Shown here: positions 5,476 through 21,900 of the stretch, piece by piece
How the letters are laid out: each line of letters starts with the position of its first letter
Position numbering within the stretch: the first letter of the stretch is position 1
NCBI GenBank assembly: GCA_947169155.1
Contig: CAMVON010000003.1
Location: 5,910 to 69,909, forward strand
From: an uncultured Clostridiaceae bacterium
GTDB taxonomy: Bacteria > Bacillota > Clostridia > TANB77 > CAG-465
DNA: 64,000 nucleotides
Reading direction: 5' to 3'
The notes under the pieces: model-generated
The model's database searches: none
Seen by the model: only the letters and a program-made list of their open reading frames with translations
What the model was told of the DNA's origin: nothing
Program-made: the position numbers and the translations under genes

Positions 5476-6203
5476 TGGCGATAGATCCACATACAGCAAA
5501 AATTATAGCACAGGCTGTTATTAGTCAAATAACAGATGAAGAAAAAAGACAAAGGTTAATTATAGGAATTATTATTATGATTGTTACAATAACACTTATA
5601 ATTTTAATTCCTATTTTTGCGATTACTTCTACTATTGATAAAATTAAAAGTTTTTTTGGCTTTGGAGATGATGGAACAACTTCAGATAGTTCTTACTATT
5701 CATTAGTTGAAATGCACGATACTTATGCTCCTACTGTAACGGTTGAAGATTTAGAATATAACGGAACATTCCCTATGCCTGTTCAAAATGCAGTTGTTAC
5801 AAGTGAATTTGGAGCTAGAGTTCATCCTGTTACAGGAAAGCAAAGTTTTCATACAGGAATAGATTTAGCAGGAGCTTGGCACTCTAATATATCTTCAGTA
5901 GAAAAAGGTACTGTTGTATGGGCAGGAGTACAGAGAGGATATGGGAATTGTGTTGAAGTGAAACATACTACTGAAAATGGGACTGTGTATTATACCTTCT
6001 ATGCACATTTGGCTAGGATTGATGTCGTAGAAGGTCAAGAAATACAACAAGGAAGTGTTGTAGGTATTCAAGGAGGCGATCCTAACCGTGATCCGAATCC
6101 TGGATATAGTACAGGCTCACATTTACATTTTGAAATTAGAAAGTCAGCAGGTGGCGACTTTGTAAATCCTAGAGAATACTTATTTGGAGATAAGGAGGTG
6201 TAA
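5475..6203 (+). CDS. membrane-anchored M23 family peptidoglycan endopeptidase (conjugation cell-wall hydrolase)
   Basis: N-terminal TM helix; M23 motifs FHTGIDLAG (HxxxD) and HLHFEI (HxH). Confidence 0.8.
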   Translation: MAIDPHTAKIIAQAVISQITDEEKRQRLIIGIIIMIVTITLIILIPIFAITSTIDKIKSFFGFGDDGTTSDSSYYSLVEMHDTYAPTVTVEDLEYNGTFPMPVQNAVVTSEFGARVHPVTGKQSFHTGIDLAGAWHSNISSVEKGTVVWAGVQRGYGNCVEVKHTTENGTVYYTFYAHLARIDVVEGQEIQQGSVVGIQGGDPNRDPNPGYSTGSHLHFEIRKSAGGDFVNPREYLFGDKEV

Positions 6204-6204
6204 A

Positions 6205-6753
6205 TTGATAACAGATATTTATACAACTGATAAAAAATATAATATAATTTATGCTGATCCACCTTGGAAGTATAAAACTTGGAGAGAAGGTACAGGAACA
6301 GCAGAAAAGCATTATCCTACAATGAATATCGAGGATATAGTAAATATGCAGAATACAATTAAGCAGATTTCAGATCGTGATTGTATTCTTTTTTTATGGG
6401 TTACATTTCCTTGCCTCTTAGAAGGACTAAGAGTAATGAAGGAATGGGGCTTTAAATATAAAACTTGTGGTTTTAATTGGATAAAACGAAACAAGAAAAG
6501 TAATACTTTCTTTTTTGGAATGGGACATTGGACTCGAGCAAATTCAGAACTTTGCTTAATTGGAACTAGAGGAACAATAAAAAGAAAATCTAACAAAGTA
6601 TTTCAAATAGTAGATACTCCTATTGAAGAACATAGCAAAAAGCCTGACATTGTTAGAGAAAGAATAATAGAACTTGTTGGAGATTTACCACGAATTGAAT
6701 TATTTGCAAGACAGACTGCAGATGGATGGGATTCGTGGGGAAACGAAGTTTAG
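6205..6753 (+). CDS. MT-A70 family N6-adenine DNA methyltransferase (orphan, conjugation-module encoded)
   Basis: Likely TTG start at 6205, 8 nt after AAGGAGG, in frame with the track ORF 6184..6753. DPPW catalytic motif (IIYADPPWKY). Confidence 0.7.
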   Translation: MITDIYTTDKKYNIIYADPPWKYKTWREGTGTAEKHYPTMNIEDIVNMQNTIKQISDRDCILFLWVTFPCLLEGLRVMKEWGFKYKTCGFNWIKRNKKSNTFFFGMGHWTRANSELCLIGTRGTIKRKSNKVFQIVDTPIEEHSKKPDIVRERIIELVGDLPRIELFARQTADGWDSWGNEV

Positions 6754-6769
6754 AAAGGAGCTGATAAAA

Positions 6770-7867
6770 TTGATTTTAGCAATTACTAGAGATAATGAAA
6801 AGCTAATTTATGAGGTTTGCAAAGAAAATGGCTTTGAAAGTCCACAGGTATTGACTGGAGTTGAAAGTTTAAAAAGGTTTGCAGTACAAGAACTTAGGAA
6901 TTTGAATAATTATAATCAAATAATAATTGATGTTGCCTCTACTAAAGAAACGGAAGATGAAATAGTGCAATCAGTTGTTGCTATTAAAAGTATGTATAAT
7001 ATACGAATAATCATAGTTGCTCTAGGCTTTCAAGAAGGCAATAATCTACTTTCAAAATTATTTAGCGAAGGTATTTATAATTTTGTAAATGCTAATACTT
7101 ATTTTGAACAAAAAGAACAATTTAAAAGTTGTTTAAGTAGTGAAGGCTGTCAATATAAAGATGCTGTGAGATTTAGACAAAAAATTGAAGATGGAAAGAA
7201 AAATAAAGTTATTATAAAAAAAGAATATAAGAAATTAAAACAATTTGTAAATATTGCAGTTGCAGGAACAGAAAAACATATAGGAGTTACTACACAGGCA
7301 ATACTTATTACAATGTTTTTAAAAAGTCTTAATATGAATGCTTGTTATATATGTGCAACCGATAAAGATGAAATAAAGAATATTGAAACTTTAGAAGGTG
7401 TTATAAAAAAAGATGGATTATATTCATATAAAGGAATTGATTTATATAGTAATGACAATAAAGTTGATGCTATGAAATATGGTTATGATTTCTATATTTA
7501 TGATTATGGAATACTAAACGAAATAACTTTAGATAACTTTTTATCTAAAGAAGTAAAAATAATTGTTGGTGGAACTAAGGCTTGGGAAACTGATGAAACT
7601 TTTAGAGTATTAAGTTTATTAGAAAAAATACCTGAAGTAAATTATATTTTTAATTATTCTAGTAATGAGGAAAAAACAAAGTTTAGAAAAATATTAAAAC
7701 AATATATAAAACATATATATTTTTCTGAATTTACAACAGATGCCTTTAATAGCAGTATAAATACAGAAACATATCACGAAATCTTTAAAGACTATATTTC
7801 TGAGAAATCTAATAAACTTGAAGTAGTTGAGAAAAAAGGTTTATTTAGCTTTCTGAAAAGAGGTTAA
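6770..7867 (+). CDS. TadZ/CpaE-like protein: pseudo-receiver N-domain plus degenerate ParA/MinD-like domain (tentative)
   Basis: Likely TTG start at 6770 after AAAGGAG. N-terminal CheY-like alternation (IIIDVAS…IIIVALG) without a clear acceptor Asp context. VAGTEKHIGVTT resembles a deviant Walker A lacking GK. Confidence 0.3.
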   Translation: MILAITRDNEKLIYEVCKENGFESPQVLTGVESLKRFAVQELRNLNNYNQIIIDVASTKETEDEIVQSVVAIKSMYNIRIIIVALGFQEGNNLLSKLFSEGIYNFVNANTYFEQKEQFKSCLSSEGCQYKDAVRFRQKIEDGKKNKVIIKKEYKKLKQFVNIAVAGTEKHIGVTTQAILITMFLKSLNMNACYICATDKDEIKNIETLEGVIKKDGLYSYKGIDLYSNDNKVDAMKYGYDFYIYDYGILNEITLDNFLSKEVKIIVGGTKAWETDETFRVLSLLEKIPEVNYIFNYSSNEEKTKFRKILKQYIKHIYFSEFTTDAFNSSINTETYHEIFKDYISEKSNKLEVVEKKGLFSFLKRG

Positions 7868-7869
7868 AA

Positions 7870-8097
7870 ATGCAAAAAAATTTATATAAAGATTATTTAA
7901 AAAAACAAAAAATAAAAGAAAAGTATGATGAACAAGTAGTTGTAAACGAACAGAGTCCTGTTCTAAAAGCACTACTTTTTTTATTTGATATTTTGTCAAA
8001 GATATTCAGTATATTATTCTATTTAGGCATTATAATATTATGCTCTATTGGAGCTACTTATCTTGCTAATAAATTTGGAATAATAAATATATTTTAG
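7870..8097 (+). CDS. small membrane protein
   Basis: 75-aa ORF with a hydrophobic C-terminal half; operonic. Confidence 0.35.
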   Translation: MQKNLYKDYLKKQKIKEKYDEQVVVNEQSPVLKALLFLFDILSKIFSILFYLGIIILCSIGATYLANKFGIINIF

Positions 8098-8108
8098 GAG
8101 GATGTAAA

Positions 8109-9194
8109 ATGAAGTGGATAAAAAGAATATTAGCAGTATGTAGTTTTTGCACTCTACTTACTGTTTCAAAATGCTTTGCAGTAACATTAGATAAAACTAA
8201 TGTTACAGATGATAAATTAAATTGTTATAGAACATATTTAGTACAAGAAGATGAACAAAATTCTTTTATAGAGAATATGGAAAAGAATATTGAAGTGTTT
8301 GGAGATAAATATACTTTTGATAGTTATACTATTGAAGGTGGATCTACAACAGATACGATTGATATTACTACTACTAAAAAAATAACAAGTAGAACGAATA
8401 ATATAGAAAGCATAATAAATCAGCTTGGAAGTACAATTAGTTATAATCAAGATGGATATGTTGGAGAGTATTTATTAAATACACAAAACATACAAATTAA
8501 AACAAACTACAATGGCTTTAGAGAAGATTTAATTGAAGAAACGATAAATTACACTAATTTATCAAGAAATGACCTAGATTTTATACCTAAGCAAACAGTA
8601 AAAGATGGATTAACACTTGATTTATTAAATATTGAATGGGAAGTTGAAACAACAAAGATGATAGGCGAATATGAAGTTGCAGATCTTTATACAGCAAAAT
8701 GTTATTATGCAGGAAAACAAAGAATTGATTACCCTAATACTTATAGCATAACAGCAGAATATACAGGAACAGCAACAAAAGATATTCCTAGTCCATATAA
8801 ATATACAATAAAGTATAATAAAATTGAAGAAAAAAAGCCTGATCCTGTGCCTGAAGTAGTTGAAGAAAAAGACAATAAGCTACTTCCTATTGCAGGTGGT
8901 ACTACTGGAATTATATTAGTAATTATATTCTTCTTTACAAGAAATATTACGGTTTATAATTACAGAGATGGAGAATATATTAAAGTTGGTAAAACTAGAA
9001 TGAATAAAAACAATACAATTAACCTAACTAAATTTTCTTTATTTGAAACTACAAACAAATACAAAATAGAATTCTCTAAAGGATTAACAAATAAAATGCA
9101 AGGCAAAATGATAACTATTACAAAAGGAAATAATAAAATAAAAATGTTAGTAAATACTGATTATGAAAAATATAGTATTGAAACTAGAATTTAG
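8109..9194 (+). CDS. exported, membrane-anchored surface protein (signal peptide, internal TM near residue 270)
   Basis: N-terminal signal-like segment MKWIKRILAVCSFCTLLTVSKCFA; later LLPIAGGTTGIILVIIFFFTRN hydrophobic stretch followed by basic residues. Confidence 0.5.
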   Translation: MKWIKRILAVCSFCTLLTVSKCFAVTLDKTNVTDDKLNCYRTYLVQEDEQNSFIENMEKNIEVFGDKYTFDSYTIEGGSTTDTIDITTTKKITSRTNNIESIINQLGSTISYNQDGYVGEYLLNTQNIQIKTNYNGFREDLIEETINYTNLSRNDLDFIPKQTVKDGLTLDLLNIEWEVETTKMIGEYEVADLYTAKCYYAGKQRIDYPNTYSITAEYTGTATKDIPSPYKYTIKYNKIEEKKPDPVPEVVEEKDNKLLPIAGGTTGIILVIIFFFTRNITVYNYRDGEYIKVGKTRMNKNNTINLTKFSLFETTNKYKIEFSKGLTNKMQGKMITITKGNNKIKMLVNTDYEKYSIETRI

Positions 9195-9202
9195 GAGGCA
9201 TT

Positions 9203-9802
9203 ATGAAAAAAGAAAATAAATTTATAATTGCAATAATACTAATTGCTATTATAACTCTTTCAGGAGTTATTTTTTTTGCACTTAAATACCCATATATAAA
9301 AGCAAATAAAGATGCTGATAATATACAAGTTGGAGATAATACAGACTTAGAAGATACACCACTTAAAGATATTGAGCAAGATATAATTCATTATGATGAT
9401 GAAATAGGAACACTTACTATTCCTGATATTTTACTTGACAATGCACCTATTAGAGAAAGTGTTGAATTAACTACACTTAAAGAAACAATAGGACATTTTC
9501 CTTCTACTTCTATTTATGAGGGTAATGTTGGTCTAGCATCTCATAATTCAGGAGAACAAGGAGATTTCTTTAAAAACTTAAAGAAAATAAAAATCGGTAG
9601 TGAGATATTTTATCAGACTAACTATGGAACTAAAAGATATGTTGTAACAGTAAAAGAAATAATTGATGAGGAAAATTGGTCTTATTTGCAACCTACTGAA
9701 GATAATAGAATCACTTTAATTACTTGTGTTGCAGGACAAAGAGAAAAACGACTTTGTGTTCAAGCAGTAGAATCTTCTGAAGGTATGGATTACGGACAAT
9801 AA
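9203..9802 (+). CDS. sortase (membrane-anchored cysteine transpeptidase)
   Basis: N-terminal TM; conserved His (LASHNSG), TLITCV active-site Cys motif (TLxTC) and downstream Arg. Confidence 0.75.
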   Translation: MKKENKFIIAIILIAIITLSGVIFFALKYPYIKANKDADNIQVGDNTDLEDTPLKDIEQDIIHYDDEIGTLTIPDILLDNAPIRESVELTTLKETIGHFPSTSIYEGNVGLASHNSGEQGDFFKNLKKIKIGSEIFYQTNYGTKRYVVTVKEIIDEENWSYLQPTEDNRITLITCVAGQREKRLCVQAVESSEGMDYGQ

Positions 9803-9874
9803 AAAAGTTTTGAAAAGGGTTTTGGATTGTCTTTAAAATCGTTTTATAATGATAGTATAAGGAGATGATCTATT

Positions 9875-10573
9875 ATGAAAAAATATGTATTTTTAGCCTT
9901 TATTATAATATTTGGAACTTCTATATTGTCAGGCACAATGACTTACAATAAAACAAATAGGAAAAATGACATTAGTATTCCACAAAACATAGTAGAAAAT
10001 GTGGATAACACAAGTCAAATAGAAACTTCAAATGAGGAAATATTATCAGAAGAAAAAACAGATGAAAGTATTTCTTCACAAGAAGAAGTCGAACAGACTC
10101 CAGTTGTAGAAAATACACCTGAAGTAAAGCAAAAAAAGCCTTCTACTCCTTCAATTACAGCGATTCAAGAACAACCTATTGTAGAAGTAAAACAGGAAAG
10201 TACAGAAATAAAAGAAAATAATAATAACAATACACCACAAACAAAAGAAGAAGCCATACAAACTGTTCCTGAAACACCTAAACAAGAAGTTATAGAAGAA
10301 CAACCTGTAATTATTGGAGAAGAATATAAAACTAATGATGCTATGATTAACACTATTAAAAATGTTATAAATAGCAATCAAAGTGAAGATATGAAATTAT
10401 ATGGTTATAATGTTGTAGTTGATAGCTCTATTATTGACATTACTTCTCAATTCACATATACTGAACAAAGAGTAATTGATAAAATTAAATATAAATTTGG
10501 AACAATCAGAATATATGCAAGAGATTATTACAATAATGGAGAGTATATTTGCACACAATGTTATATCATATAG
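9875..10573 (+). CDS. secreted Glu/Gln/Thr-rich low-complexity protein
   Basis: Signal peptide MKKYVFLAFIIIFGTSILSG; long E/Q/T/P-rich region. Confidence 0.45.
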   Translation: MKKYVFLAFIIIFGTSILSGTMTYNKTNRKNDISIPQNIVENVDNTSQIETSNEEILSEEKTDESISSQEEVEQTPVVENTPEVKQKKPSTPSITAIQEQPIVEVKQESTEIKENNNNNTPQTKEEAIQTVPETPKQEVIEEQPVIIGEEYKTNDAMINTIKNVINSNQSEDMKLYGYNVVVDSSIIDITSQFTYTEQRVIDKIKYKFGTIRIYARDYYNNGEYICTQCYII

Positions 10574-10895
10574 GAAAGGAGGAATTATCATAGACTTAGA
10601 GAAATTGGCAAATAAAATAATAGAATATGAGGCTGAGTATAATTGGTATGATCTTGTTGATGACTATGGAAATATTGAAATAGATGATGATGCAAGAAAG
10701 CATTTATTTGAAGAAACTCTAAGAGTATTGCAAAACAGCCCTGATGATATTATTACACACTTAAATACAATAAAAGAAGATTTAGAGTGTGATGAAGATT
10801 TTGAAAACAATAAGGAATATCAAGATACTAAAGAACTTATTGATAGTATTGAAAAATTTAAAGCTGAACAATTAGATGACAGCTTAGAAATGTAA
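10536..10895 (+). CDS. small strongly acidic protein (possible DNA-mimic/anti-restriction-type, speculative)
   Basis: ORF open from 10476, but the start is uncertain. The first in-frame ATG with coding look is at 10536, overlapping the previous gene; GGAGG at 10578 may instead serve a non-ATG start. Very D/E-rich. Confidence 0.35.
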   Translation: MESIFAHNVISYRKGGIIIDLEKLANKIIEYEAEYNWYDLVDDYGNIEIDDDARKHLFEETLRVLQNSPDDIITHLNTIKEDLECDEDFENNKEYQDTKELIDSIEKFKAEQLDDSLEM

Positions 10896-10957
10896 TAAAT
10901 AGATATAAGGCACTTAACTAAGGTTAGGTGCTTTTTCTATGGAAAGGAATTGATAAA

Positions 10958-13573
10958 ATGTTAAAAGTAAATAGTAAAAGAATAATAGCAATGTTAATGT
11001 TAGTATTAACATTATTTTCTACTTTAAGTCCTAGTGTATTTGCTACTGAAATAAGCTCTGCAAATATTGAAAATAACGGAGATGTTGAATGGCATTTACA
11101 ATATTGGAATGAGGATAAAAATGTATGGTCTTATGTTACAACAACATATACTACTTATAATGAAGGTGGAAGAAGTTATCCTGCTTATTGTGTAAATAGA
11201 GAATATCCAGGTGTTGGAGAACTAGATGGCTATACTGTTGATGTCAATGCAAGTGTTACTGATGTTTTAGGAAATGTGCAAATATGGAGAACAATTATAA
11301 ATGGATTTCCTTATAAATCAGCAGGAGAACTTGGCTTAGCAAATGACCTAGAGGCTTTTCAAGCAACAAAACAAGCTGTATATTGTATTCTATATGGTTT
11401 TGATCCTGCTAGTCGTTTTAGAAGTGCTGAACAAGGTGCTGATGACAGAGGCGATGCAATAAGAACAGCAATAATAAATATGGTTAATACAGGAAGATAC
11501 GGAGCTCAAATGCCTTCTGATCCTGATATAACACTTTCTAATTCAGGAAATTTATATGAGGATGGAAATTACTATACTCAAAAAATAAATGTTTCAAGCA
11601 CAGTAGATATGGCAAATTATACAATTACTGCGACTGCTAATTTACCTGAAGGAACAATTATTACAAATTCAAATGGAACACAAACAAACTCTTTCAATGG
11701 AAATGAAAGTATGTATGTTAAGATACCTAAATCTCAATTAGGACAAGACATTTCTAATGCAATAATAAATGTGCAAGGAAAATGTAAAACATATCCTGTA
11801 TTCTATGGGCAAACTAGAATGGCTGAAACTCAAAATTATGCACTAACTTACGATCCTTTTGGCGATGGTGTTGGTCGTGCCACTTTAAATATTAAAACTA
11901 ACACAGGAAAAGTTGTTGTTAATAAAACAGATGATGAAACTAAACAGCCTATTGAGGGAGTAAAATTCTCTTTAAAGAAAACTGATGGAACAGTTGTAGG
12001 AACAGCTACTACTGATAAAAATGGTGTTGCTACCTTTGAAAAGTTATATCAAGCAAATTATAAATTAGTTGAGGTAGAAACGAATCCTAAATATATTCTA
12101 AATAAAGTAGAATTTGATGTCCCTGTTGAATATAACAAGACAGCAAAAGTTGATGTTGAAAATGAACACAAAAAAGGCAATATAAAGGTTTATAAAATTG
12201 ATAAAGATAACAATAGAGTTGTACTAGGAAATGTTGAATTTGACCTATTCTCGCACGAATTTGATAAGGTTATTGGAACATACCATACAGATGTAAATGG
12301 AGAACTTGAAATTAAGGATTTAAGAATAGGAGATTATTCACTAATCGAAAAGAAAACGAATAGATGGTACAATCTTGCTGAAGATACAGACATTGAGGTT
12401 GAATGGAATTTAACAAAAGAACTTCAAATAGAAAATGAGCTAAAAAAAGGCTCTATAAAAATTATAAAAGTTGATGAAGAAGATCACGAAGTAAAACTTG
12501 AAAATGTTAAATTTAAAGTTATGGATAAAGACAATAATGTTTTAGAAGAACTAACAACAGATAAAAACGGAGAGGCTGAAACTTCTAATTATCCTGTAAG
12601 AGATTTTTCAGAATTAAAAATACAAGAAGTTGAAACATTAGATACTTATGTTTTAGATGATGAAATTCATACTATTACACTTGAAGAAAATCAAATAAAA
12701 AATGTTACTTTTGAAAATGAAAAAATCAAAGGACAAATTGAAGTAACAAAAGTAAGTGCTAATGACAATAAATTAACAGGAGATAAAAAAGGTACTCCAC
12801 TTGAAGGAGCTATATTTGAAGTATATAATTCGAACGATGAATTAGTTGATACTCTAACTACTGATAAAGATGGTAAAGCTATTTCAAAATTACTTGTAAA
12901 GGGAGAATATCACTTAAAAGAAGTTGACTCAGGATCACCTTATTACTTAATAAATTCAGATATATTTAAAGCTGAAATAAAAGAGCATAAAGAAATTGTT
13001 GGTGTAAATGTTGATGAGGAAAGTGTTGACATTGAGGTTGAAGTTGAGAAAAAAGGTTTTATTGAAACACAATCAAAAGACAGTATTTACTATAATTTCA
13101 AAAATATTAAAAATAAATCAAATGTTGCATTAGACAATTTTACTTGGCAAGATACACTACCTACACAAGCATTAAGAGTTGATAGAATTTATACAGGTAC
13201 TTGGAATGAGGATTTAGAATATTCAATTTGGTATAAAACTAATAAAAATGACTATAAAATGTTAGTAGATAAACTAAGTACACAAGTTAATAACGAAATA
13301 AGCTTTAAGACTGCAGATTTAGAAGAAGATGAATTCATTACTGAATATGAATTTAGATTCGGAACTGTTAAAGTAGGCTTTTCAGAAGTAGATGCACCTG
13401 TGCTTTACTGTGATATGTTAGAAGGTTTAGGTAATGGTTTTGTATTTACTAACTATACAAAAGTATTTGGAACTTATGAGGATAAATATGTTGAAGATAC
13501 TGATGAATGGACTACTGTTACTTATTTCAAAGAAATAGAAGTTACTCAAAAACTACCTAGAACAGGTTGTTAA
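10958..13573 (+). CDS. large surface adhesin: candidate thioester (TIE-like) N-domain, 4-5 CnaB/SpaA-type repeats, C-terminal LPRTG motif
   Basis: Signal peptide after a likely ATG at 10958. YCVNREYPG and FQATKQAVY segments resemble thioester Cys/Gln motifs. Repeated …VVVNKTDDETKQPIEGVKFSL…TTDKNGVATF… units. Ends …KLPRTGC-stop. Confidence 0.65.
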   Translation: MLKVNSKRIIAMLMLVLTLFSTLSPSVFATEISSANIENNGDVEWHLQYWNEDKNVWSYVTTTYTTYNEGGRSYPAYCVNREYPGVGELDGYTVDVNASVTDVLGNVQIWRTIINGFPYKSAGELGLANDLEAFQATKQAVYCILYGFDPASRFRSAEQGADDRGDAIRTAIINMVNTGRYGAQMPSDPDITLSNSGNLYEDGNYYTQKINVSSTVDMANYTITATANLPEGTIITNSNGTQTNSFNGNESMYVKIPKSQLGQDISNAIINVQGKCKTYPVFYGQTRMAETQNYALTYDPFGDGVGRATLNIKTNTGKVVVNKTDDETKQPIEGVKFSLKKTDGTVVGTATTDKNGVATFEKLYQANYKLVEVETNPKYILNKVEFDVPVEYNKTAKVDVENEHKKGNIKVYKIDKDNNRVVLGNVEFDLFSHEFDKVIGTYHTDVNGELEIKDLRIGDYSLIEKKTNRWYNLAEDTDIEVEWNLTKELQIENELKKGSIKIIKVDEEDHEVKLENVKFKVMDKDNNVLEELTTDKNGEAETSNYPVRDFSELKIQEVETLDTYVLDDEIHTITLEENQIKNVTFENEKIKGQIEVTKVSANDNKLTGDKKGTPLEGAIFEVYNSNDELVDTLTTDKDGKAISKLLVKGEYHLKEVDSGSPYYLINSDIFKAEIKEHKEIVGVNVDEESVDIEVEVEKKGFIETQSKDSIYYNFKNIKNKSNVALDNFTWQDTLPTQALRVDRIYTGTWNEDLEYSIWYKTNKNDYKMLVDKLSTQVNNEISFKTADLEEDEFITEYEFRFGTVKVGFSEVDAPVLYCDMLEGLGNGFVFTNYTKVFGTYEDKYVEDTDEWTTVTYFKEIEVTQKLPRTGC

Positions 13574-13652
13574 TATTGACTTTTAATCATTTTTTATTAT
13601 AATGTATATGAATTTATGAATTCATATATATAAATTATTTTTTATTTATTTT

Positions 13653-13696
13653 AATAGGGGAGTATGGGTTTATAGCCTATCTCCCCTATTTTTTCG
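13653..13696 (+). terminator. rho-independent terminator after the adhesin gene
   Basis: AATAGGGGAG … CTCCCCTATT 10-bp stem followed by TTTTT. Confidence 0.6.
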
Positions 13697-13720
13697 TTTC
13701 TATCCCCTATTTTATTGCAT

Positions 13721-13767
13721 AAAAAAATACTAGAGCCACTAACAAGCCACCTAGTATTTTATTTTAA
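13721..13767. terminator. bidirectional terminator (A-run / ATACTAG…CTAGTAT hairpin / T-run) serving the minus-strand XRE gene
   Basis: 7-bp stem flanked by A7 and TTTATTTT; lies just 3' of the minus-strand stop at 13759-13761. Confidence 0.45.
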
Positions 13768-14019
13768 AGATTTAAAATATTCATCAGTTAAATCATTTAC
13801 TGATATGTTAAAACATTTAGCGAATCCACATAGCTCGTAATCTACAACAGTTCTAATTCCAATCTCAATATTATAAATTGCTTGTTTATGAATATCTATT
13901 CCTAACAACATTAGCTTATCTGATAATTTTTGATAAGATAATTTATTTAATTCTCTATAATATTTTATTTTAGAGCCGACTACATTTAATTCGCCTTCTT
14001 TTGACCTTGTATTATTCAT
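13759..14019 (-). CDS. XRE-family helix-turn-helix transcriptional regulator (ICE repressor-like)
   Basis: 86 aa; HTH_XRE pattern (…YRELNKLSYQKLSDKLMLLGIDIHKQAIYNIEIG…); opposite orientation between conjugation and cargo blocks, as orf9 in Tn916. Confidence 0.7.
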   Translation of the reverse strand: MNNTRSKEGELNVVGSKIKYYRELNKLSYQKLSDKLMLLGIDIHKQAIYNIEIGIRTVVDYELCGFAKCFNISVNDLTDEYFKSLK

Positions 14020-14151
14020 ATCGACATCTCCTCTATCTATTGATTTTATAATAAAAGTTTGATATTATTATAAATGCCTGTATTTATACCTATTTATTAT
14101 TCGCAATTTATATGCTAAAATACTAAAAATGTAGAAGGAGATGTTGAAATT

Positions 14152-14775
14152 ATGAGTAAATTATTTGAAGAATACTCAGCAGATGAAATAGATGATGCAA
14201 AAGGAAAAATAAAAAGAATTGAAATTAGAAAAAAAGAATTTAATTTACTTAAAGAAAAATTAGAAAAACACTTTAATTTTGAAATTACAGAGTATATAAT
14301 AGCTGATATTTTAGATTATGAAACATATCATCATACTTGTTTAATGATAAATTTAGCTGTTGTTAATAATAGAATGACAGTAGTTGATGGAGAAATATTA
14401 AAAGCAGGACTAAAAATATTATTTAATATTCAAAGTAGTAATGATAGGTTTGACAGGAGTGTTTATATGGATACTTTCGATTTTGATGTTTGGTATGAAA
14501 AGTACAGTACACTTGAAATTGTTGACCTAAAGAAACATCTTTCAAAAGAAGATTTTGATTTACTAAAGAGCTTAAATATTGAAATTAAGGATAAGGTATA
14601 TACAGAGCAAGAATTTGAAATCTTAGATATGGAACTTCTAGGGTATTATATTGATGAAGATATGGATGAAGAAGAACTTAAAGAATCTAAGCCACTTCCT
14701 GAAGGAATTACAAGAGAAGAATACAATAAATTACTTGAAAAACTAAGCAATATATCAAGTGAATATAATTTTTAA
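14152..14775 (+). CDS. acidic hypothetical protein (cargo region)
   Basis: 207-aa ORF with RBS GAAGGAG; no recognisable motif. Confidence 0.5.
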   Translation: MSKLFEEYSADEIDDAKGKIKRIEIRKKEFNLLKEKLEKHFNFEITEYIIADILDYETYHHTCLMINLAVVNNRMTVVDGEILKAGLKILFNIQSSNDRFDRSVYMDTFDFDVWYEKYSTLEIVDLKKHLSKEDFDLLKSLNIEIKDKVYTEQEFEILDMELLGYYIDEDMDEEELKESKPLPEGITREEYNKLLEKLSNISSEYNF

Positions 14776-15758: not shown

Positions 15759-18700
15759 ATGATTAATAATGATTTAACTTTCTTTACAAACGAGCCTGAA
15801 AGAAATTTATATGATAGATTTAGTAAAATACTTAACAGAAATACACAATTTTTTGATGTTCTTGTTGGATATTTTAGAGCAAGTGGATTTTATTTAATGC
15901 AAGATGCTTTGGATAAAGTGGAAAAAACAAGAATTCTAATAGGTATAAATACTGATAAACAAATTGTTGATATGTTTGAAGAAACACAAGGCGAAATAAA
16001 GGAATTTAGTTTGTCAAATAAAGAATCTATAACTGAATATAAAAAAGAGCTTGAAAAAGAATTTGAAAAGTCTGAAGATACAGAAAATGTTGAAAAAGGT
16101 GTAAATAAGTTTATATCATTACTAAAAGAAGGAAAGCTTGAAATTAGAATATATACTAAGCAACCTATACACGCAAAAATTTATATTATGAGAGATTTTA
16201 AGGATAGTGCTGATTTTGGTAGAGTAATCACAGGATCAAGTAACTTTTCTCAATCAGGATTAGTAAATAATCTTGAATTTAATGTTGAATTAAAAAATTC
16301 AGCAGATGTTCAATTTGCTTTAGAAAAATTTGAAGAATTATGGAAAGAATCTGTTGAAGTAAATCAAGAATGTGTTGATACAATAGAAAATAAAACTTGG
16401 GTTAGATCAGACATAACACCTTATGAAATGTATGTAAAATTTTTATATGAATATTTTAAAGAAGAAATAAACGATGATTTAATTGATAGTTCTAAAGACT
16501 CATCAAGATATTATCCTGATAGCTTTGTACCTTTACAATATCAGAAGGATGCTGTAATTCAAGCAAAAAGAATATTAGAAAAACATAATGGTATTTTTAT
16601 TTCTGATGTTGTTGGTCTAGGAAAAACTTATATATGTGCTATGTTAGCTCAGGAATTAGATCATAAAAAACTAATACTTTGCCCTCCTGTTCTAGTGGAT
16701 TATTGGGAAAATGTAATGTTTAATTTTGGAGTTAGAGGTGTAAAGGTAGAATCAGTTGGAAAGTTAGATAAAATTATTGAGAATGGTACAGAACAATACG
16801 GATATGTTTTTGTCGATGAATCACATAGATTTAGAAATGCTGAAACTGAACAATATAGACAATTACACGAAATATGTGTTGGAAAAAAAGTTATTCTTAT
16901 TTCTGCAACACCACAAAATAACTATAATACAGATATTGCTAATCAATTATATTTATTCCAATCAAAAAATAAATCTACCATAGTAAATGCAAGAAACTTA
17001 GAATTGTTTTTTGATAATCTTAGAAAAAAGGTTAGATCTTATGAGAAAGATACTGATGAATATAAACAAGCAATAAGAGAAACATCTGAAGAAATAAGAG
17101 ATAAAGTTTTAAGAGAAGTAATGATTAGAAGAACTAGGACAGAAATTCAAAAAACTTATGCTGATGATTTAAAGAAACAAGGATTAAAATTTCCAAAGGT
17201 TTCTGATCCTATAAAACTAATTTATGAATTTAGCGAAAATGCTGAAGAAGTATTTGAAACAACAATTCAAAAAATAACAGAGTTAAATTATTCAAGATAT
17301 AAACCTTTAACTTATGTTAAAGATAATAAACTACAATCTAGTCAAAGATCTTTATTAGTAGGTCAAGCTAATATGGGTGGATTTATGAAAGGTATTCTTG
17401 TAAAAAGATTAGAAAGTAGTAAATATGCTTTTGAAATGACTTTAAATAGGTTTATAGATTCTTATAATGAATTTATAAAAATGTATAAAGAAAATGGTGT
17501 CGTTTGGATTAGTAAAAAACTTAATGTTGCTGAGTTATTAGATAATGATGATACTGAGAAATTAGAACAAGCTGTAAAGAATGAAGATGCTTTTAAGTTT
17601 AATGCAGAAGATTTTAACAAAGATTTTATTATAGACTTAGAGAAAGACTTAGCAATATTACAAAATTTAAAATATATTTGGGATACAGTTAAAACTGATG
17701 ATAAACTAGAATATTTTATAAATGAATTAAAAAATAATAAAGACTTAAAACATAATAAACTAATTATATTTACTGAATCTAAAGAAACAGCTGAATACTT
17801 AACTAAGAGTATTGAAAATAGACTTAATGAAAATGTTATTGTATTTAGTGGATCAATGCCTGATAGTATTAGAACATCTATTAGAGCAAACTTTGATCCT
17901 AACTATAACAAAGATAAACAAAAGAATGATTATAGAATATTAGTTACTACTGATGTACTTGCTGAAGGTATGAATTTACATAGAAGTAATGTAATCATAA
18001 ATTATGATTTACCTTGGAATCCTACTAAAATAATGCAAAGAGTTGGAAGAATTAACAGAGTTGGAACAGCACATAATGAGATATATGTTTATAACTTCTT
18101 CCCTACAAGCAAATCAAATGAACAGATGTCATTGGAAGAAAACATTATTACTAAAATGCAAATGTTTCACGATATTTTAGGAGAAGATTCAAAATTCTTA
18201 ACAGATGATGAGGAAGTTTCTACACATGAGTTATTTAGAAGAATGACAACAATTATTGATGATGAAGATGAAGAAATTAGCTCAGAACTTTCTTATTTAA
18301 AGACAATCCGTGATATTAGGGATAAAGATAAAGAATTATTTGAAAAGATTAAAAACTATCCTAAGAAAATTAAAATCGGAAGAAAAAAAGACAATATAGA
18401 TGGACTAATTACTTTCTTTAGAAAGGGATATTTAAAGAAGTTCTATATTTCAAGTGTTGAGGATACAAAAGAAATTACTTTTGAACAAGCTATTGATTAT
18501 GTTAAAGCAACAAAATCAGAACAAAGCAAAAAAGTTAAAAGCGATTATTATGATTTACTAAAAGCAAATAAACTAGCTTTTGAAGAATCAGAAAAAGAAG
18601 ATAATAGTAATGAAATAACTGCTGTGAATAAAAAGGGATCTAGTAATGCTAAAAATATTATTAAAGTGCTTAAAGAGTGCTTAAAAATGGAATCAAGTTT

Positions 18701-18956
18701 TACTGATATAGAAATTGATAATATAAATAAAATAATAAACTTATTAGAAAATGGCGAATTGCCTGTTAGAATAGTTAAAGATGGAAATAAAGCCATAAAG
18801 AAGATAACAGGAGTTAATGATATTATAAAATTCTATAAAGAATTGGAACTTATGATACCTAAAGTTTATCTTGAGCAAGAAACAAAAGTTGAGGCAAATA
18901 ATAAGAAAATAAGTAAAAATGAAAGAGAAATAATCTTGTCAGAATACATTTTTTAA
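15759..18956 (+). CDS. PLD-family (HKD) nuclease domain fused to an SNF2-family helicase/translocase
   Basis: Single HKD motif IHAKIYIMRD…GSSNFSQSG near residue 140. SNF2/SF2 motifs SDVVGLGKT (I), VFVDESHRFRN (II, DESH), LVTTDVLAEGMNLH (V), QRVGRINRVGT (VI). Confidence 0.85.
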   Translation: MINNDLTFFTNEPERNLYDRFSKILNRNTQFFDVLVGYFRASGFYLMQDALDKVEKTRILIGINTDKQIVDMFEETQGEIKEFSLSNKESITEYKKELEKEFEKSEDTENVEKGVNKFISLLKEGKLEIRIYTKQPIHAKIYIMRDFKDSADFGRVITGSSNFSQSGLVNNLEFNVELKNSADVQFALEKFEELWKESVEVNQECVDTIENKTWVRSDITPYEMYVKFLYEYFKEEINDDLIDSSKDSSRYYPDSFVPLQYQKDAVIQAKRILEKHNGIFISDVVGLGKTYICAMLAQELDHKKLILCPPVLVDYWENVMFNFGVRGVKVESVGKLDKIIENGTEQYGYVFVDESHRFRNAETEQYRQLHEICVGKKVILISATPQNNYNTDIANQLYLFQSKNKSTIVNARNLELFFDNLRKKVRSYEKDTDEYKQAIRETSEEIRDKVLREVMIRRTRTEIQKTYADDLKKQGLKFPKVSDPIKLIYEFSENAEEVFETTIQKITELNYSRYKPLTYVKDNKLQSSQRSLLVGQANMGGFMKGILVKRLESSKYAFEMTLNRFIDSYNEFIKMYKENGVVWISKKLNVAELLDNDDTEKLEQAVKNEDAFKFNAEDFNKDFIIDLEKDLAILQNLKYIWDTVKTDDKLEYFINELKNNKDLKHNKLIIFTESKETAEYLTKSIENRLNENVIVFSGSMPDSIRTSIRANFDPNYNKDKQKNDYRILVTTDVLAEGMNLHRSNVIINYDLPWNPTKIMQRVGRINRVGTAHNEIYVYNFFPTSKSNEQMSLEENIITKMQMFHDILGEDSKFLTDDEEVSTHELFRRMTTIIDDEDEEISSELSYLKTIRDIRDKDKELFEKIKNYPKKIKIGRKKDNIDGLITFFRKGYLKKFYISSVEDTKEITFEQAIDYVKATKSEQSKKVKSDYYDLLKANKLAFEESEKEDNSNEITAVNKKGSSNAKNIIKVLKECLKMESSFTDIEIDNINKIINLLENGELPVRIVKDGNKAIKKITGVNDIIKFYKELELMIPKVYLEQETKVEANNKKISKNEREIILSEYIF

Positions 18957-18971
18957 TGGGGGTATGTAAAA

Positions 18972-21900
18972 ATGGCGATAGCAAGTGATAAAACAAAAGA
19001 ATATTTACAAATGCTTGAAGAAAAATTTGATATAAACAATTTTTGTGAATTTATAAAAGACTTATTGAACTTGGAAAATAGCAATATTGTAAATGGTCAA
19101 AAGCAAAAGGCTACAAGCGAACAATATAAAAATTATATAGACACCACTCAATTATATGCAAAATACGAAGACAATAAGAGAAGAACAATAGGTGTTTTAG
19201 TTATAAAATTACAAGATAATAAACTTCCCGCAAATGCTAGAACTTTGCAAAGAAATTACATAGCACACTTGCTAGATGCATATAGTTTAGATGCCTCACT
19301 ATCTGCAATATATAGTGAAACTGATGATACTTGGAGATTATCTTTTGTAAAACAAGAATTAGATTTTGGAGATGGAAAATTAAAAGCAAAATTTACTCCT
19401 GCAAAAAGATATTCATATCTTTTTGGAAAAGATGAGCCTAATCATACAGCTAAAGAACAATTATTAGAATTATTAGAGAATAATAATAAGCAATATTCTA
19501 TTGAAGAAATAGAAGAAAAATTTAGTGTTGAAAAAGTTACAAAAGATTTCTTTGAAAATTATAAAGAAAACTATTTAAAATTAAAAGAAACATTAGAGGC
19601 AAACGAGGAATTTATTAGTGAGGCTAATAGATGTGATTTTACTTCAGAAGAATTTACAAAAAAACTTATGGGACAAATTGTTTTTATATATTTCTTACAG
19701 AAAAAAGGATGGCTGGGTGTTAGATTAGTTCCTCAGTTATTAAGTATGGAAGAATACAATAACATCTATACCAAAAGTGATATTATTCAAAAGAAAATTT
19801 TAGATAAATACTACATTACTTTTAATGGTAATAAGAAAATTAAAAAAGAATTGTTAGAAAAATACAACGATAATAAACAAGAAATTGAGAGTTTATCAGA
19901 TATATTTACTAATACAAGTTTTGATAATAAATGGGGATCAGGACAAAAGAGATTTATTAGAGCTATATTTGATAATTGTATAAATAGAAAAAAGAACTTT
20001 TTTGATGATTATTTAGAGCCATTTTTCTATGATGGACTTAATCATAAAAGAAAAAATCAATATTTTAGCTTGTTTAATTGCAAAATACCATTTCTTAATG
20101 GTGGATTATTTGAGCCATTAGACAATTATCAATGGGAAATAGCAAGATTTAATATTGATAATGAAATATTTTCTAATAAAGAAGAAACAGGAATATTAGA
20201 TTTCTTTGATAGATATAACTTTACAATGAACGAAGAAGAACCTCTTGAAAAAGATGTTGCAGTTGATCCTGAAATGTTAGGAAAAATATTTGAAAACTTA
20301 CTAGATGTTAAAGACAGAAAATCAAAAGGAGCTTTTTATACTCCAAGAGAAATTGTGCATTTTATGTGTCAAGAAAGCATTGCTAATTTCTTAGTAAATA
20401 AAGTTGGAGTAAAATACGAAGAAATTAAAGAATTTATACAATATGGAGAGATGATAAGAGATATTGACTTAAAAGATGCAACTAAAGAGTCTCACATAAT
20501 AGGAGATTCAATATTCAATAACATTATTCAAATAGATAAGGCACTTGAAAATATAAAAATTGCAGATCCATCTGTTGGATCAGGTGCATTTCCTTTAGGA
20601 ATATTAAACGAAATAGTAAAAATAAGAGATATATTAACTTCATATATGTTAATTTATAACAGACTTGGGTTATTTGGAAAGAAATATACAGAAGAACAGA
20701 TAACTAATAATAAAAGAAGTATTTATAATATAAAATGGAATACAATAAAAAACAGTATATATGCAGTTGATATTGAGAATAGTGCAGTAGATATAACTAA
20801 ATTAAGATTATGGCTTTCAATAGTTGTAGATCAAACTGATGATCCTGAGCCTTTACCAAACCTAAATTGTAAAATTATGCAAGGTAATTCCTTAATAGAT
20901 GAATATAACGGAATAAAGCTAATTGATGAAAAATTTATTGAAGAATTAAAAGATCGTGAGAATGTAAAATTAAATGATGGTGGAAGAATAAAAAGCAAAA
21001 ATAAGTATATTGATGTTTCAGCAAATCAAATACAATTTGGAGATGGGCAGAAAAAAGCCCAAATTGATGATTTAATTAACTTGAAACAAGAATTATACGG
21101 AGAAAATGAGCCTAGTAGAAAAAAATTACTACTTGAAAAAATAGAAATAGCTAGAAATGAATTATTACGATTAAACTTTGCTGGAACTAATAAAGAAAAA
21201 GAACTTTTAGAAATAGACAAATCACACAATAAACCTTATTTTGCTTGGATGCTCGAATTTATTGAAGTTTTTATATCAAATAATGGGTTTGATATAGTAA
21301 TAGGAAATCCTCCGTATGTTGGAGAAAGTGGAAATAAAGACATTTTCCGACCTATTGCTAATACAGAGTTTGGTAAAAGATTCTATATGGGCAAGATGGA
21401 TTTATTTTATTTCTTTTTCCATAAAGGAATTGATATTTCAAATAATATGGGAGAAATTGCTTTAATAACTACAAACTATTATACTACTTCTGATGGTGGT
21501 AAAAAACTAAGGAAAGATTTAAAAGAAAGAACATATATTAGAAAATTTATAAACTTTAATGAAATTAAAGTCTTTGATTCTGCTAGAGGACAACATAATT
21601 CTATTATGTTTTTAACAAAAAATAAAGAAGAAAAAATAAAATGCAATGTAGTATTATGTAATGGAAAGGGCAATGCATCAGCAAACGATATAAAAAATAT
21701 CTTAATTGGTAATTATAAAAATAATATAAAAATTGAATTAGACCAAAATAATATTTATGATGGAGATAACTATTATATAAGACAAACAGGGGTACATTCA
21801 GTGGGAAACATATCCTCAGTTGAAACTATATTAGATAAGATGTCTAAATGTAAAAAACTTTCTGAGAACTATTTTGTAAATCAAGGTGTTGTTACTGGAT

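Follow-up and report, generated by a model that had tools for sequence, protein, structure and literature searches.

The locus described here raises the question of whether an LPXTG motif followed by one residue and a stop codon can serve as a sorting signal. The window, a 64,000-nucleotide stretch of DNA from an uncultured low-GC gut Clostridia bacterium, carries the type IV conjugation module of an integrative conjugative element (ICE). As the first-pass annotation stated, the adhesin gene closes the conjugation block (VirD4, TrbL_4, VirB4-like, M23 peptidase, and MT-A70). Its open reading frame (10928-13573, plus strand) ends with the codons AAA CTA CCT AGA ACA GGT TGT TAA, and these codons together with a scan for hydrophobic segments bear out the reported KLPRTGC-stop ending without a hydrophobic tail: the only hydrophobic 19-mer of the whole adhesin is its N-terminal signal peptide. 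We propose that this is a mating or attachment adhesin of the ICE, in which LPRTG plus one residue forms a complete minimal sorting signal that lacks a membrane anchor and is processed by the sortase encoded on the element. The probability of this explanation as a whole is about 0.6.

The features of the locus are listed in Table 1. The signal peptide reported earlier is present, but the reported length of 881 aa counts from GTG 10928. Because GGAAAGGAA stands before ATG 10958 and homologues start with MLKVNSK or MIKVKSK, this ATG is almost certainly the true start, giving a protein of 871 aa.

Table 1. Features of the adhesin locus (window coordinates)
Feature	Position	Strand	Basis or detail
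361-aa membrane protein, candidate partner or acceptor, directly upstream of the sortase	8109..9194	+	Hydrophobic segments, homology
ICE-encoded sortase, 199 aa, N-terminal TM anchor and catalytic domain	9203..9802	+	PF04203, E 2e-19
232-aa protein: N-terminal TM anchor, E/K/Q/P-rich spacer, conserved ~85-aa C-terminal domain	9875..10573	+	
Adhesin gene	10958..13573	+	871 aa and stop codon; homologues start at ATG
Sec-type signal peptide, MLKVNSKRIIAMLMLVLTLFSTLSPSVFA followed by TE	10958..11044	+	Read from sequence
Class II thioester domain	11045..11905	+	Pfam TED; PDB matches 6fwv and 6fwy; invariant C78 and Q292; AF2 model
TQxxΦW-like helper motif ATKQAVY	near 11363-11383	+	Alignment with BaTIE and EfmTIE86
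Stalk, four SpaA/CnaB-type domains (boundaries approximate)	11906..13030	+	Pfam SpaA; matches BaTIE CnaB domains
C-terminal all-beta domain, CnaA/DEv-IgG-like	13037..13522	+	Homologue alignments, AF2
Putative minimal sorting signal: LPRTG 13553-13567, Cys 13568-13570, TAA 13571-13573	13553..13573	+	Codons and homologue endings
Post-gene region: promoter-like TTGACT-16-TATAAT 13576-13603; perfect palindrome 13602-13631; terminator hairpin 13653-13690	13576..13690	+	

The protein was correctly described as a thioester (TIE-like) adhesin, and its thioester domain belongs to class II. It matches the Pfam TED family (PF08341) with 31.2 bits against a cut-off of 22, and comparisons with the class II TIE structures give E values of 1e-23 and 1.4e-6 for sequence, 5e-17 and 8e-17 for profiles, and 1.9e-13 and 1.9e-11 for the AF2 model, whose best structural matches are these class II domains. 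The proposed thioester cysteine in YCVN is invariant in the homologue alignment. The predicted bond connects this Cys78 (codon 11189-11191, AYCVN) to the equally invariant Gln292 (11831-11833, ETQNYAL), which aligns with chain position 235 of BaTIE; that position is Gln266, the crystallographic thioester Gln (PMC6194298). The segment FQATKQAVY, previously taken for the bond-forming Gln motif, instead aligns with ATQLAVW of BaTIE and ATQLVSW of EfmTIE86, i.e., with the TQxxΦW helper motif. Like BaTIE (PDB 6FWV), EfmTIE86 (6FWY), and SaTIE (PMC6194298), the adhesin opens with a signal peptide and a class II thioester domain, in which the Cys lies in a [YFL]CΦζ motif and the distal Gln sits on the beta-hairpin past a beta-sandwich insert; a CnaB/SpaA stalk follows, and LPxTG lies at the C terminus. 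It differs from them in having TKQAVY in place of TQxxΦW, an extra family-specific C-terminal beta-sandwich, and its own sortase encoded within a conjugation module. Furthermore, the sorting signal of BaTIE is canonical in the literature (LPXTG and a transmembrane segment), whereas the adhesin in the window stops one residue past the Gly.

Pfam finds the SpaA domain (PF17802) in four stretches (E 4.8e-53). Four of the “four to five” CnaB/SpaA repeats counted earlier are thus accounted for; the supposed fifth is a separate beta-sandwich of ~165 aa (AF2 pLDDT 90) for which no Pfam family was found. Structure searches with this domain give only weak matches, to the C-terminal domains of pilins, Cna, and AgI/II. 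In its alignments, a Lys (VEK) and an Asn (FTNxT) are invariant and a Glu nearly so, a set of residues that suggests an isopeptide bond. The domain, found in 660 representative clusters at E<=1e-3, defines the LPxTG+1 family.

Among the proteins with this domain, LPxTG is followed by exactly one residue, which varies, in 306; another 33 carry a canonical hydrophobic (transmembrane) tail, and 10 end in LPxTR. Of the 120 closest homologues (mostly 61 to 98% identical), nearly all have the LP[RK]TG+1 ending. In a set of 149 representatives (50%-identity clusters bearing the domain), LPxTG is followed by exactly one residue in 110, by none in 1, and by two in 1; a second homologue search returned exactly one residue in 106 of 114. 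The residues L, P, R/K, T, and G are invariant or conservatively replaced, and their codons vary (CTT/TTA/CTA/TTG/CTG, CCT/CCA/CCG, AGA/CGA/AGG/CGT/CGC/AAA, ACA/ACT/ACG/ACC, and GGT/GGC/GGG/GGA). The stop codon alternates between TAA and TAG, and the +1 residue is unconstrained (Y, F, K, C, I, M, W, and others). Conserved residues with synonymous codon turnover show that selection acts on the LPxTG peptide; the occurrence of the same ending in more than 300 homologues excludes a chance origin.

These data bear directly on an earlier suggestion that the sorting signal is truncated by a lesion at the module boundary. A point mutation, frameshift, or module-boundary deletion of a canonical signal in this single copy could be argued from the existence of tailed relatives, which differ by a 105-nt indel exactly at this point, and from the -1 frame downstream, which encodes LLILTFNHFLL-stop. 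However, that short peptide lacks a basic tail and is not conserved, locus L001 having LLVLTFK-stop instead; the DNA after the stop is a conserved promoter-like element; and the more than 300 homologues that end alike do so with differing +1 residues and stop codons. The first-pass annotation had named homologues ending right after LPxTG, a family trait, as the evidence against truncation, and the comparison found such endings overwhelmingly. The survey of endings across the family refutes the lesion, which retains next to no probability. Because hundreds of relatives have LPxTG+1, nearly always near a sortase of their own, the ending is a conserved trait. Tailed and tail-less forms represent one domain at 88 to 95% identity, with matching synteny and matching sortase type, and the indel between them is clean; judging from these sequences, the hydrophobic tail is dispensable in this adhesin-sortase system. 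One homologue (P0287) ends in LPKTGGDD-stop, a tail cut short.

Downstream of the gene, the terminator is strong, as claimed, but does not follow immediately: it starts ~80 nt past the stop. The fold of the whole 13574-13700 segment has a dG of -33.9 kcal/mol (z -6.5). No Rfam match was found for the region 13576-13690.

The sortase has intact catalytic positions, His (ASHN), Cys (TLITC), and Arg (KRLCVQA), and its best PDB relative is Bacillus anthracis SrtA (2kw8; E 2.7e-11). It scores below every NCBIfam class cut-off, including those of classes C, D, and E; the top model is class C, with 61 bits against a cut-off of 160, and classes D and E score nearly equally. Its specificity is therefore not readable from family membership. 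The sortase ends 1.15 kb before the adhesin start, consistent with the ~1 kb noted earlier; for its description as “dedicated,” the support is synteny. All loci of this ICE type with upstream DNA present have an intact TLxTC sortase upstream of the adhesin, and the same arrangement is seen on three further ICE backbones (TrbL_5, TrbL_3, and TrbL_2/PrgI). The C-terminal domain occurs without a called sortase at L038, a remnant locus, and at L039, which is degraded. Members of the LPxTR subfamily have 0 to 10 trailing residues and retain an intact sortase; therefore, the sortase there either has another specificity or is retained for something besides the motif. The 232-aa protein encoded between sortase and adhesin is syntenic within this ICE type only; it has no Pfam or NCBIfam match, and no homologue was found among the tested sortase-adjacent genes on other backbones.

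An adhesin that is merely secreted or held noncovalently, with LPxTG+1 vestigial or otherwise used and the sortase serving other substrates, has a precedent in TIEpLS20 of the Bacillus subtilis plasmid pLS20, for which such retention was proposed. TIEpLS20 is likewise a class II thioester adhesin whose gene belongs to a conjugation operon, pLS20-type Bacillus plasmid adhesins are 27.7% identical to the window adhesin over residues 10-681, and a role in mating-pair formation is probably shared. In contrast to the window adhesin, TIEpLS20 has no LPXTG, pLS20 has no sortase gene, and function is independent of host sortases (PMC8092201); its C-terminal region is also different, “toast-rack”-like. 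The absence of the Gly from LPxTR variants and the convention that excludes tail-less LPXTG from sorting signals (PMC3208642) point the same way. However, a vestige would neither remain invariant while its codons turn over synonymously in clusters down to ~35% identity nor hold exactly one trailing residue (110 representatives versus 1 with zero and 1 with two). The sortase travels with the adhesin on four backbones, and no second LPxTG-type C-terminus was found among the proteins in the ICE part of the window. We consider secretion or noncovalent retention improbable.

Processing by the sortase leaves the acceptor to be considered. The 361-aa protein consists of a signal peptide, a ~230-aa ectodomain, a TM helix near 257-277, and a ~85-aa cytoplasmic tail; no Pfam domains were found among its 1972 homologues. 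An LPIAGG sequence beside the TM helix is not conserved and was rejected as a sorting motif. Possibly, the sortase joins the adhesin Thr to the epsilon-amine of Lys161 (codon 8589-8591) in this protein, in a pilus-type (class C)-like reaction that would yield a covalent two-protein adhesin held in the membrane by the TM helix of the partner. This Lys, in the motif D-x-x-[FY][ILV]-P-K, which resembles the YPK pilin motif, is the only one conserved in 121 of 121 homologues, although an invariant Lys may serve many other roles. The pairing of this gene with an adjacent sortase is conserved on at least three ICE backbones (in L040 and L043, the gene immediately before the sortase is a homologue, with E 5e-21 and 2e-20), but no homologue was found among the three sortase-adjacent genes compared in L042. 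The best-scoring sortase model is class C, but far under its cut-off and almost equaled by classes D and E. LPRTG lies only ~10 disordered residues beyond the last domain, and an acceptor encoded by the element would suit any host. Sortase-assembled pili are made by class C sortases, with the Lys of the YPKN pilin motif as the nucleophile. They share with the window system an LPxTG protein that has isopeptide-type domains of the CnaA/CnaB kind and, as in Cpa, a thioester domain like that of a tip adhesin; further shared features are a dedicated sortase and a neighbor protein, here with an invariant [FY][ILV]PK Lys. Unlike them, the window system has no polymerizing major pilin, its candidate acceptor has a TM helix in place of its own LPxTG, its sortase is under the class C cut-off, and pilins retain full sorting signals. 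Such ligation is, on balance, unlikely, if less so than secretion; were it true, the adhesin could do without a tail and would not depend on the peptidoglycan chemistry of the host.

The evidence favors a noncanonical sorting signal, one of the readings offered earlier: motif and +1 position are conserved, codons change synonymously, and the sortase linkage holds on four ICE backbones. With such a minimal signal, the adhesin would be exported by Sec and display the thioester domain on its four SpaA/CnaB domains and the C-terminal beta-sandwich. The membrane-anchored sortase would cut the Thr/Gly bond, freeing the dipeptide Gly-Cys, and the Thr carboxyl would then pass to an amine, by default that of the cell wall stem peptide, with Lys161 of the 361-aa protein as the alternative. 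The single trailing residue would hold the Gly carboxyl in a peptide bond, as Staphylococcus aureus sortase A requires: for SrtA, this Gly must not be a free carboxylate (PMC5714338; PMC4723074). Missing membrane retention would probably be replaced by recognition of the conserved C-terminal domain by the dedicated sortase or a partner protein. Sortagging substrates (LPETG-X and LPETG-amide) obey the same in vitro rule: at least one further residue, or an amide, must block the Gly carboxyl, and no TM segment is needed (PMC5714338; PMC4723074). Endogenous SrtA incorporates tail-less LPETG-amide peptides into the wall (PMC4723074). However, sortagging substrates are engineered molecules that work inefficiently in vivo, whereas the window adhesin has the same minimal design as a natural conserved C terminus. 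Counting against a minimal signal, soluble tail-less LPXTG peptides are poor in vivo substrates, needed at 0.5 to 1 mM in S. aureus (PMC4723074); BasO, with LPHTG and no hydrophobic tail, served as a nonsorted control in B. anthracis (PMC3208642); and TIEpLS20 works without sorting signal or sortase (PMC8092201). The LPxTR subfamily with its intact sortase, the loci L038 and L039, and the failure of the sortase to reach any NCBIfam class also weigh on that side.

Among conjugative elements, PrgB of pCF10 is a surface adhesin with a sortase motif (PMC12857230; PMC8225981); it differs in its polymer adhesin domain and in anchoring described through an ordinary C-terminal LPxTG motif. An element-encoded sortase is known from pCW3 of Clostridium perfringens, whose efficient transfer requires the plasmid-borne SrtD, according to work cited in PMC8225981. 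No LPXTG+1 counterpart is reported in this PrgB/pCW3 literature (PMC12857230; PMC8225981), and we found no earlier description of a natural LPXTG+1 sorting signal. The conserved LPxTG+1 ending of this family calls into question whether sorting signals need a membrane anchor.

The adhesin gene, whose 3' end reads AAA CTA CCT AGA ACA GGT TGT TAA in the ORF 10928-13573 (+), does end in KLPRTGC-stop, as the first-pass annotation had it. GTG 10928 is probably not its true start: the sequence favors ATG 10958, because this codon is preceded by GGAAAGGAA and nearly all homologues start there (MLKVNSK/MIKVKSK), so that the protein has 871 aa and not the 881 aa initially assigned. A Sec-type signal peptide (residues 1 to 29) supplies the sole hydrophobic 19-mer of the whole protein, Pfam matches are to a thioester domain (PF08341; 31.2 bits against a cut-off of 22) and, in four stretches, to SpaA/CnaB (E value of 4.8e-53), and LPRTG occupies residues 866 to 870. 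The textbook sorting signal consists of LPXTG, a hydrophobic span, and a basic tail. When compared with this tripartite arrangement, the adhesin has the secretion signal and LPXTG, but one residue follows the Gly, and there is no hydrophobic span or positively charged tail after the motif. A tail hidden by frameshift or readthrough was rejected, as the downstream frames give VVNIDF-stop and LLILTFNHFLL-stop, neither of them conserved. The coordinates of the features discussed here are listed in the table.

Table. Features in the window and in related loci
Sequence	Feature	Coordinates	Strand	Product
Window	Upstream membrane protein	8109-9194	+	361 aa
Window	Sortase	9203-9802	+	199 aa
Window	Small acidic ORF	10476-10895	+	139 aa from TTG
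Window	Adhesin	10958-13573	+	871 aa
Window	C-terminal beta-sandwich domain of adhesin	13037-13522	+	
Window	Promoter, palindrome, and terminator	13576-13700	+	
Window	Terminator hairpin	13653-13690		
Window	Divergent gene	13759-14019	-	86 aa
Window	Cargo past the transfer module	15759-22685	+	1065 aa; 1237 aa
Window	Chromosomal ORF adjoining valS	36070-37005	-	311 aa
L007	LPxTR ending	12200-12233		
L040	Long adhesin gene broken by TGA	7487-10726		
L041	Long adhesin gene broken by TGA	5717-10726		

The window holds an integrative conjugative element (ICE) in a chromosome of about 28% GC, recognized as such because transfer genes lie upstream of the adhesin (VirD4/TraG, TrbL_4, a VirB4-like ATPase, an M23 peptidase, and an MT-A70 methylase) and a tyrosine recombinase lies downstream, after an accessory block, with valS further on. 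Gene order bears out the description of the adhesin as the final gene of the transfer module, and all related ICEs keep it in the same position. Megablast of 9000-14100 against plasmids gave no match; the element is known solely from metagenomes and MAGs, and a single-protein search of genome contigs returned 28 loci, all in uncultured Clostridia MAGs, the best of them 90% identical. Between a 232-aa gene and the adhesin there is a small acidic ORF that is over-called from its TTG; relatives have a 96-aa or a 59-aa gene at this site, the latter with a DpnD/PcfM match. The cargo just past the transfer module resembles a restriction or defence system: a PLD-nuclease/SNF2-helicase fusion and, after it, an Eco57I/MmeI-type methyltransferase whose specificity domain is TaqI-like. 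Relatives carry a different methylase and DEAD-helicase pair at the same site.

The proposal that a lesion had truncated the sorting signal falls because homologues share the ending. The ending LPRTGC is shared by nearly all of the 120 closest homologues, which are mostly 61-98% identical and 867-1055 aa long; a few have LPRTGW, LPRTGM, or LPKTGC instead. Two subgroups differ: one with 998-aa proteins carries a canonical tail (LPRTGGSDLGTFIATGIIIGINAIGLLIALRKKDKNIDNAK), and in one with 1410-aa proteins LPRTR is followed by a few residues. A search of 1.84 billion cluster representatives with only the last 182 residues of the adhesin produced 660 matches at E ≤ 1e-3, and at least 660 clusters, formed at 50% identity, carry the C-terminal domain. 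LPxTG followed by exactly one residue and a stop (LPxTG+1) is found in 110 of the best 149 of these 660 matches (about 30-88% identity, proteins of 114-2775 aa), which also include one protein with zero trailing residues, one with two, about five with a transmembrane (TM) tail, and five with LPxTR. The corresponding figure in a profile search is 106 of 114, and all sequences collected include 306 LPxTG+1, 33 tailed, and 10 LPxTR forms. Comparison with homologues, which the first-pass annotation had called for, thus shows LPxTG+1 to be a family trait and the TM tail to belong to a minority. The identity of the added residue is unconstrained (Y, F, K, C, I, M, W, V, N, E, H, R, S, A, or L). Codons of the motif differ synonymously between loci and the stop is either TAA or TAG; the peptide and the stop position are under purifying selection.

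Some short genes in this collection (P0370, P0342, P0290, and P0363) might be taken for small pilin-like proteins but are really C-terminal pieces of long adhesin genes, short because the gene caller split the adhesins at in-frame stops, frameshifts, and ambiguous bases. In the related loci L040 and L041, an in-frame TGA breaks the long adhesin gene of a GC-rich ICE at the site of a Trp in another locus, L039 (…YNAMNG*PAGTP… versus …YNSMNGWPAGTP…), and the 241-aa product downstream of it (P0370) occurs in 128 indexed blocks of the sequence collection. This is a highly successful pseudogene, or else the host recodes TGA. The chromosomal ORF adjoining valS in the window ends in ...DDWIENPNTGKIR, an NPxTG (sortase B-like) motif with three residues after it and no hydrophobic tail. 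Pfam gave nothing significant for this ORF, and its ending may be due to chance or be another tail-less motif.

Tailed and tail-less forms appear from their sequences to be interchangeable. Tailed forms have tail-less neighbours that are 88-95% identical in the C-terminal domain, there are at least four unrelated tail sequences among them, and a clean indel of 105 nt, lying between ACAGG and a conserved TTGAC, distinguishes the window from the related locus L005 at the DNA level. In one homologue (P0287) the terminus LPKTGGDD-stop is a shortened tail. All three end types have an intact sortase and share one gene order. LP[RK]TR followed by 0 to 10 residues (e.g., LPRTRILK or LPRTRFLV) defines a recurrent subfamily (P0047, P0059, P0090, P0123, P0125, P0126, P0131, P0249, and P0278, and the locus L007), in which the sortase is intact at 183 aa with TLITC; this ending could reflect altered P1' specificity or a decayed motif.

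A near-consensus promoter, TTGACT-16-TATAAT, follows the adhesin stop directly; its hexamers are kept in two related loci (L001 and L008) and within the L005 tail codons, and its spacer diverges. Past it come a perfect palindrome with a 13-bp stem and the conserved TGAATTCATAT, and then a strong terminator, so that the hairpin noted in the first-pass annotation is there but about 80 nt past the stop, not immediately after it. This segment could encode a small RNA of about 80 nt or could be an operator plus terminator, in the latter case shared with the divergent 86-aa gene; Rfam had no match on 13500-14200.

The last ~165 structured residues of the adhesin are confidently predicted to be all-beta (pLDDT 90), the final 16 residues, including LPRTGC, are predicted to be disordered, and the distance from the C-terminal domain to the motif is always about 10 residues. 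The domain matches no family in Pfam, and a structural search returned only weak generic beta-sandwich matches (TM 0.3-0.46; pilin, Cna, and the C-terminal part of AgI/II). An invariant Lys (VEK), an invariant Asn (FTNxT), and a near-invariant Glu stand out in the alignments, a residue pattern that suggests an isopeptide bond.

At the other end of the protein, the call of a TIE-like adhesin was right, and the class can now be named. Besides the Pfam match, the nearest solved relatives are the class II thioester domain (TED) proteins BaTIE (6fwv; E value of 1e-23 over the whole protein) and EfmTIE86-TED (6fwy). An AF2 model of the TED (pLDDT 79) has its best PDB matches in 6fwy (E value of 1.9e-13, TM 0.46-0.51) and 6fwv (E value of 1.9e-11), with class I TEDs far behind (E value of about 1e-3 at best). 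By these matches, the N-domain is predicted to have the class II fold of head domain, beta-sandwich insert, and slipknot. The alignments give Cys78 and Gln292 as the predicted thioester partners, so that the Cys motif named in the first-pass annotation stands and its Gln motif does not. The AYCVN motif with Cys78 matches [YFL]CΦζ, and every aligned homologue (14/14 and 18/18, down to 25% identity) has this Cys. In the profile of 14 homologues, the invariant Gln292 (ETQNYAL) is aligned with chain position 235 of 6fwv, which, with the construct offset, makes it equivalent to BaTIE Gln266, the residue bonded to Cys71 in the BaTIE crystal (PMC6194298). It fits the bond-forming ΦQζΦΦ, which is on the strand that follows the beta-sandwich insert of class II domains, and the Cys-Gln spacing is 214 aa versus 195, 204, and 171 in solved class II TEDs. 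FQATKQAVY, previously proposed as the Gln motif, is the wrong one: it aligns with ATQLAVW of BaTIE and ATQLVSW of EfmTIE86, that is, with the TQxxΦW helper motif on helix alpha2, where the adhesin (ATKQAVY) replaces Q by K and W by Y. Distant relatives (L031 and L033) read ATQFAVW here, and the helper residues are dispensable for bond formation (PMC6194298).

The sortase gene upstream encodes a PF04203 protein (70 bits, cut-off 26.6; E value of 2e-19) with an N-terminal TM anchor and the catalytic His (ASHN), Cys (TLITC), and Arg (KRLCVQA), positions that are conserved across four ICE backbones. With classes A to F considered, it reaches no NCBIfam sortase class cut-off (class C, 61 versus 160; SrtD, 54 versus 140; class E, 50 versus 160; class D, 48 versus 165), and the nearest solved structure is the class A enzyme SrtA of B. 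anthracis. In this ICE type, each locus with the C-terminal domain and enough upstream DNA has a TLxTC sortase 1-3 kb ahead of its adhesin. Three further conjugative backbones (TrbL_5/DUF3852, TrbL_3, and TrbL_2/PrgI) have sortases with a common conserved core, 4-6 kb upstream of long adhesins that end in LPRTGY or LPKTGK. The exceptions are a remnant in which only MT-A70 is left (L038) and a degraded copy (L039).

The gene that immediately precedes the sortase encodes a protein in which a signal peptide and an ectodomain are followed by a TM helix and a cytoplasmic tail; it is homologous to the same-position gene in the related loci L040 and L043 (E values of 5e-21 and 2e-20). Its 1972 homologues are all hypothetical membrane proteins, a Pfam domain was found in none of them, and the family always adjoins the ICE sortase. 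Its single invariant Lys, K161, lies within D-x-x-[FY][ILV]-P-K (121/121), which resembles the pilin motif without matching the canonical WxxxVxVYPK. The cytoplasmic tail of about 85 aa is conserved in this ICE type and absent on other backbones. LPIAGG of this protein was considered as a second sorting motif and rejected: relatives have VPVVGG, IPILGG, or IYIIGG, and the segment is the start of the TM helix.

In S. aureus, SrtA requires the carboxyl of the LPXTG Gly to sit in a peptide or amide bond (PMC5714338; PMC4723074). Because the single-residue rule, with zero and two trailing residues in one protein each, matches this requirement, LPRTG-C is most likely a minimal, complete sortase signal. 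Living S. aureus cells offer a parallel, in that SrtA puts tail-less LPETG-amide into the wall, with high concentration needed (PMC4723074). The ICE sortase would cleave between Thr and Gly, freeing Gly-Cys, and then pass the adhesin to an amine; the local concentration usually given by a TM tail might be supplied by the conserved C-terminal domain together with the dedicated sortase or a partner. By default the acceptor would be a cell-wall peptide, and alternatively it may be Lys161 of the co-conserved membrane protein, which would make anchoring independent of host wall chemistry. In the fullest form of this alternative, which we consider rather unlikely, LPxTG+1, the C-terminal beta-sandwich, the dedicated sortase, and the membrane protein would form a self-contained, host-independent anchoring module, with the adhesin ligated to Lys161 and held in the membrane beside the T4SS, not in peptidoglycan. 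Such ligation, if true, would join two proteins covalently into one mating adhesin. Sortase chemistry would then have a new use, and the sorting signal would be a natural one with no need for membrane retention.

Cleavage and anchoring in the LPxTG+1 family are what we infer from sequence, and several points count against sorting. S. aureus uses tail-less substrates inefficiently (PMC4723074), BasO, which has LPHTG without a tail, has been taken as a non-substrate (PMC3208642), and TIEpLS20, the pLS20 conjugation adhesin, works without a sortase (PMC8092201). In addition, the LPxTR subfamily retains its sortase though it lacks the Gly, and the window sortase is below all class cut-offs.

A conjugative-element TIE adhesin with a sortase motif belongs to a known kind. 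What appears to be new is the combination, in a large natural family: a signal cut to LPxTG+1, fused to a specific C-terminal domain, and co-inherited with its own sortase and a conserved membrane protein. We found no prior account of tail-less LPXTG+1 substrates in the literature searched, which left out most subscription journals, and an earlier description is possible. Tail-less LPXTG proteins are routinely written off as non-substrates or pseudogenes, and here a large gut-Clostridia family of conjugative-element adhesins (at least 660 clusters carry the domain) retains nothing beyond LPxTG and one residue. Should these proteins be processed, membrane retention would not be obligatory for sorting, genome annotation would be overlooking a whole class of sortase substrates, and the minimal "sortag" design would already exist in nature. 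For the sortase specialist, the surprise lies in the breadth and conservation of the trait, and the need for membrane retention becomes directly testable.

The adhesin probably serves in donor-recipient attachment, a role proposed by analogy with TIEpLS20 and with the SrtD requirement in pCW3 transfer (cited in PMC8225981); relatives on pLS20-type plasmids are 27.7% identical to the adhesin. How Gram-positive conjugative elements attach donor to recipient is a largely open question (PMC8092201). The family bears on this attachment, which matters for gene spread in the gut.
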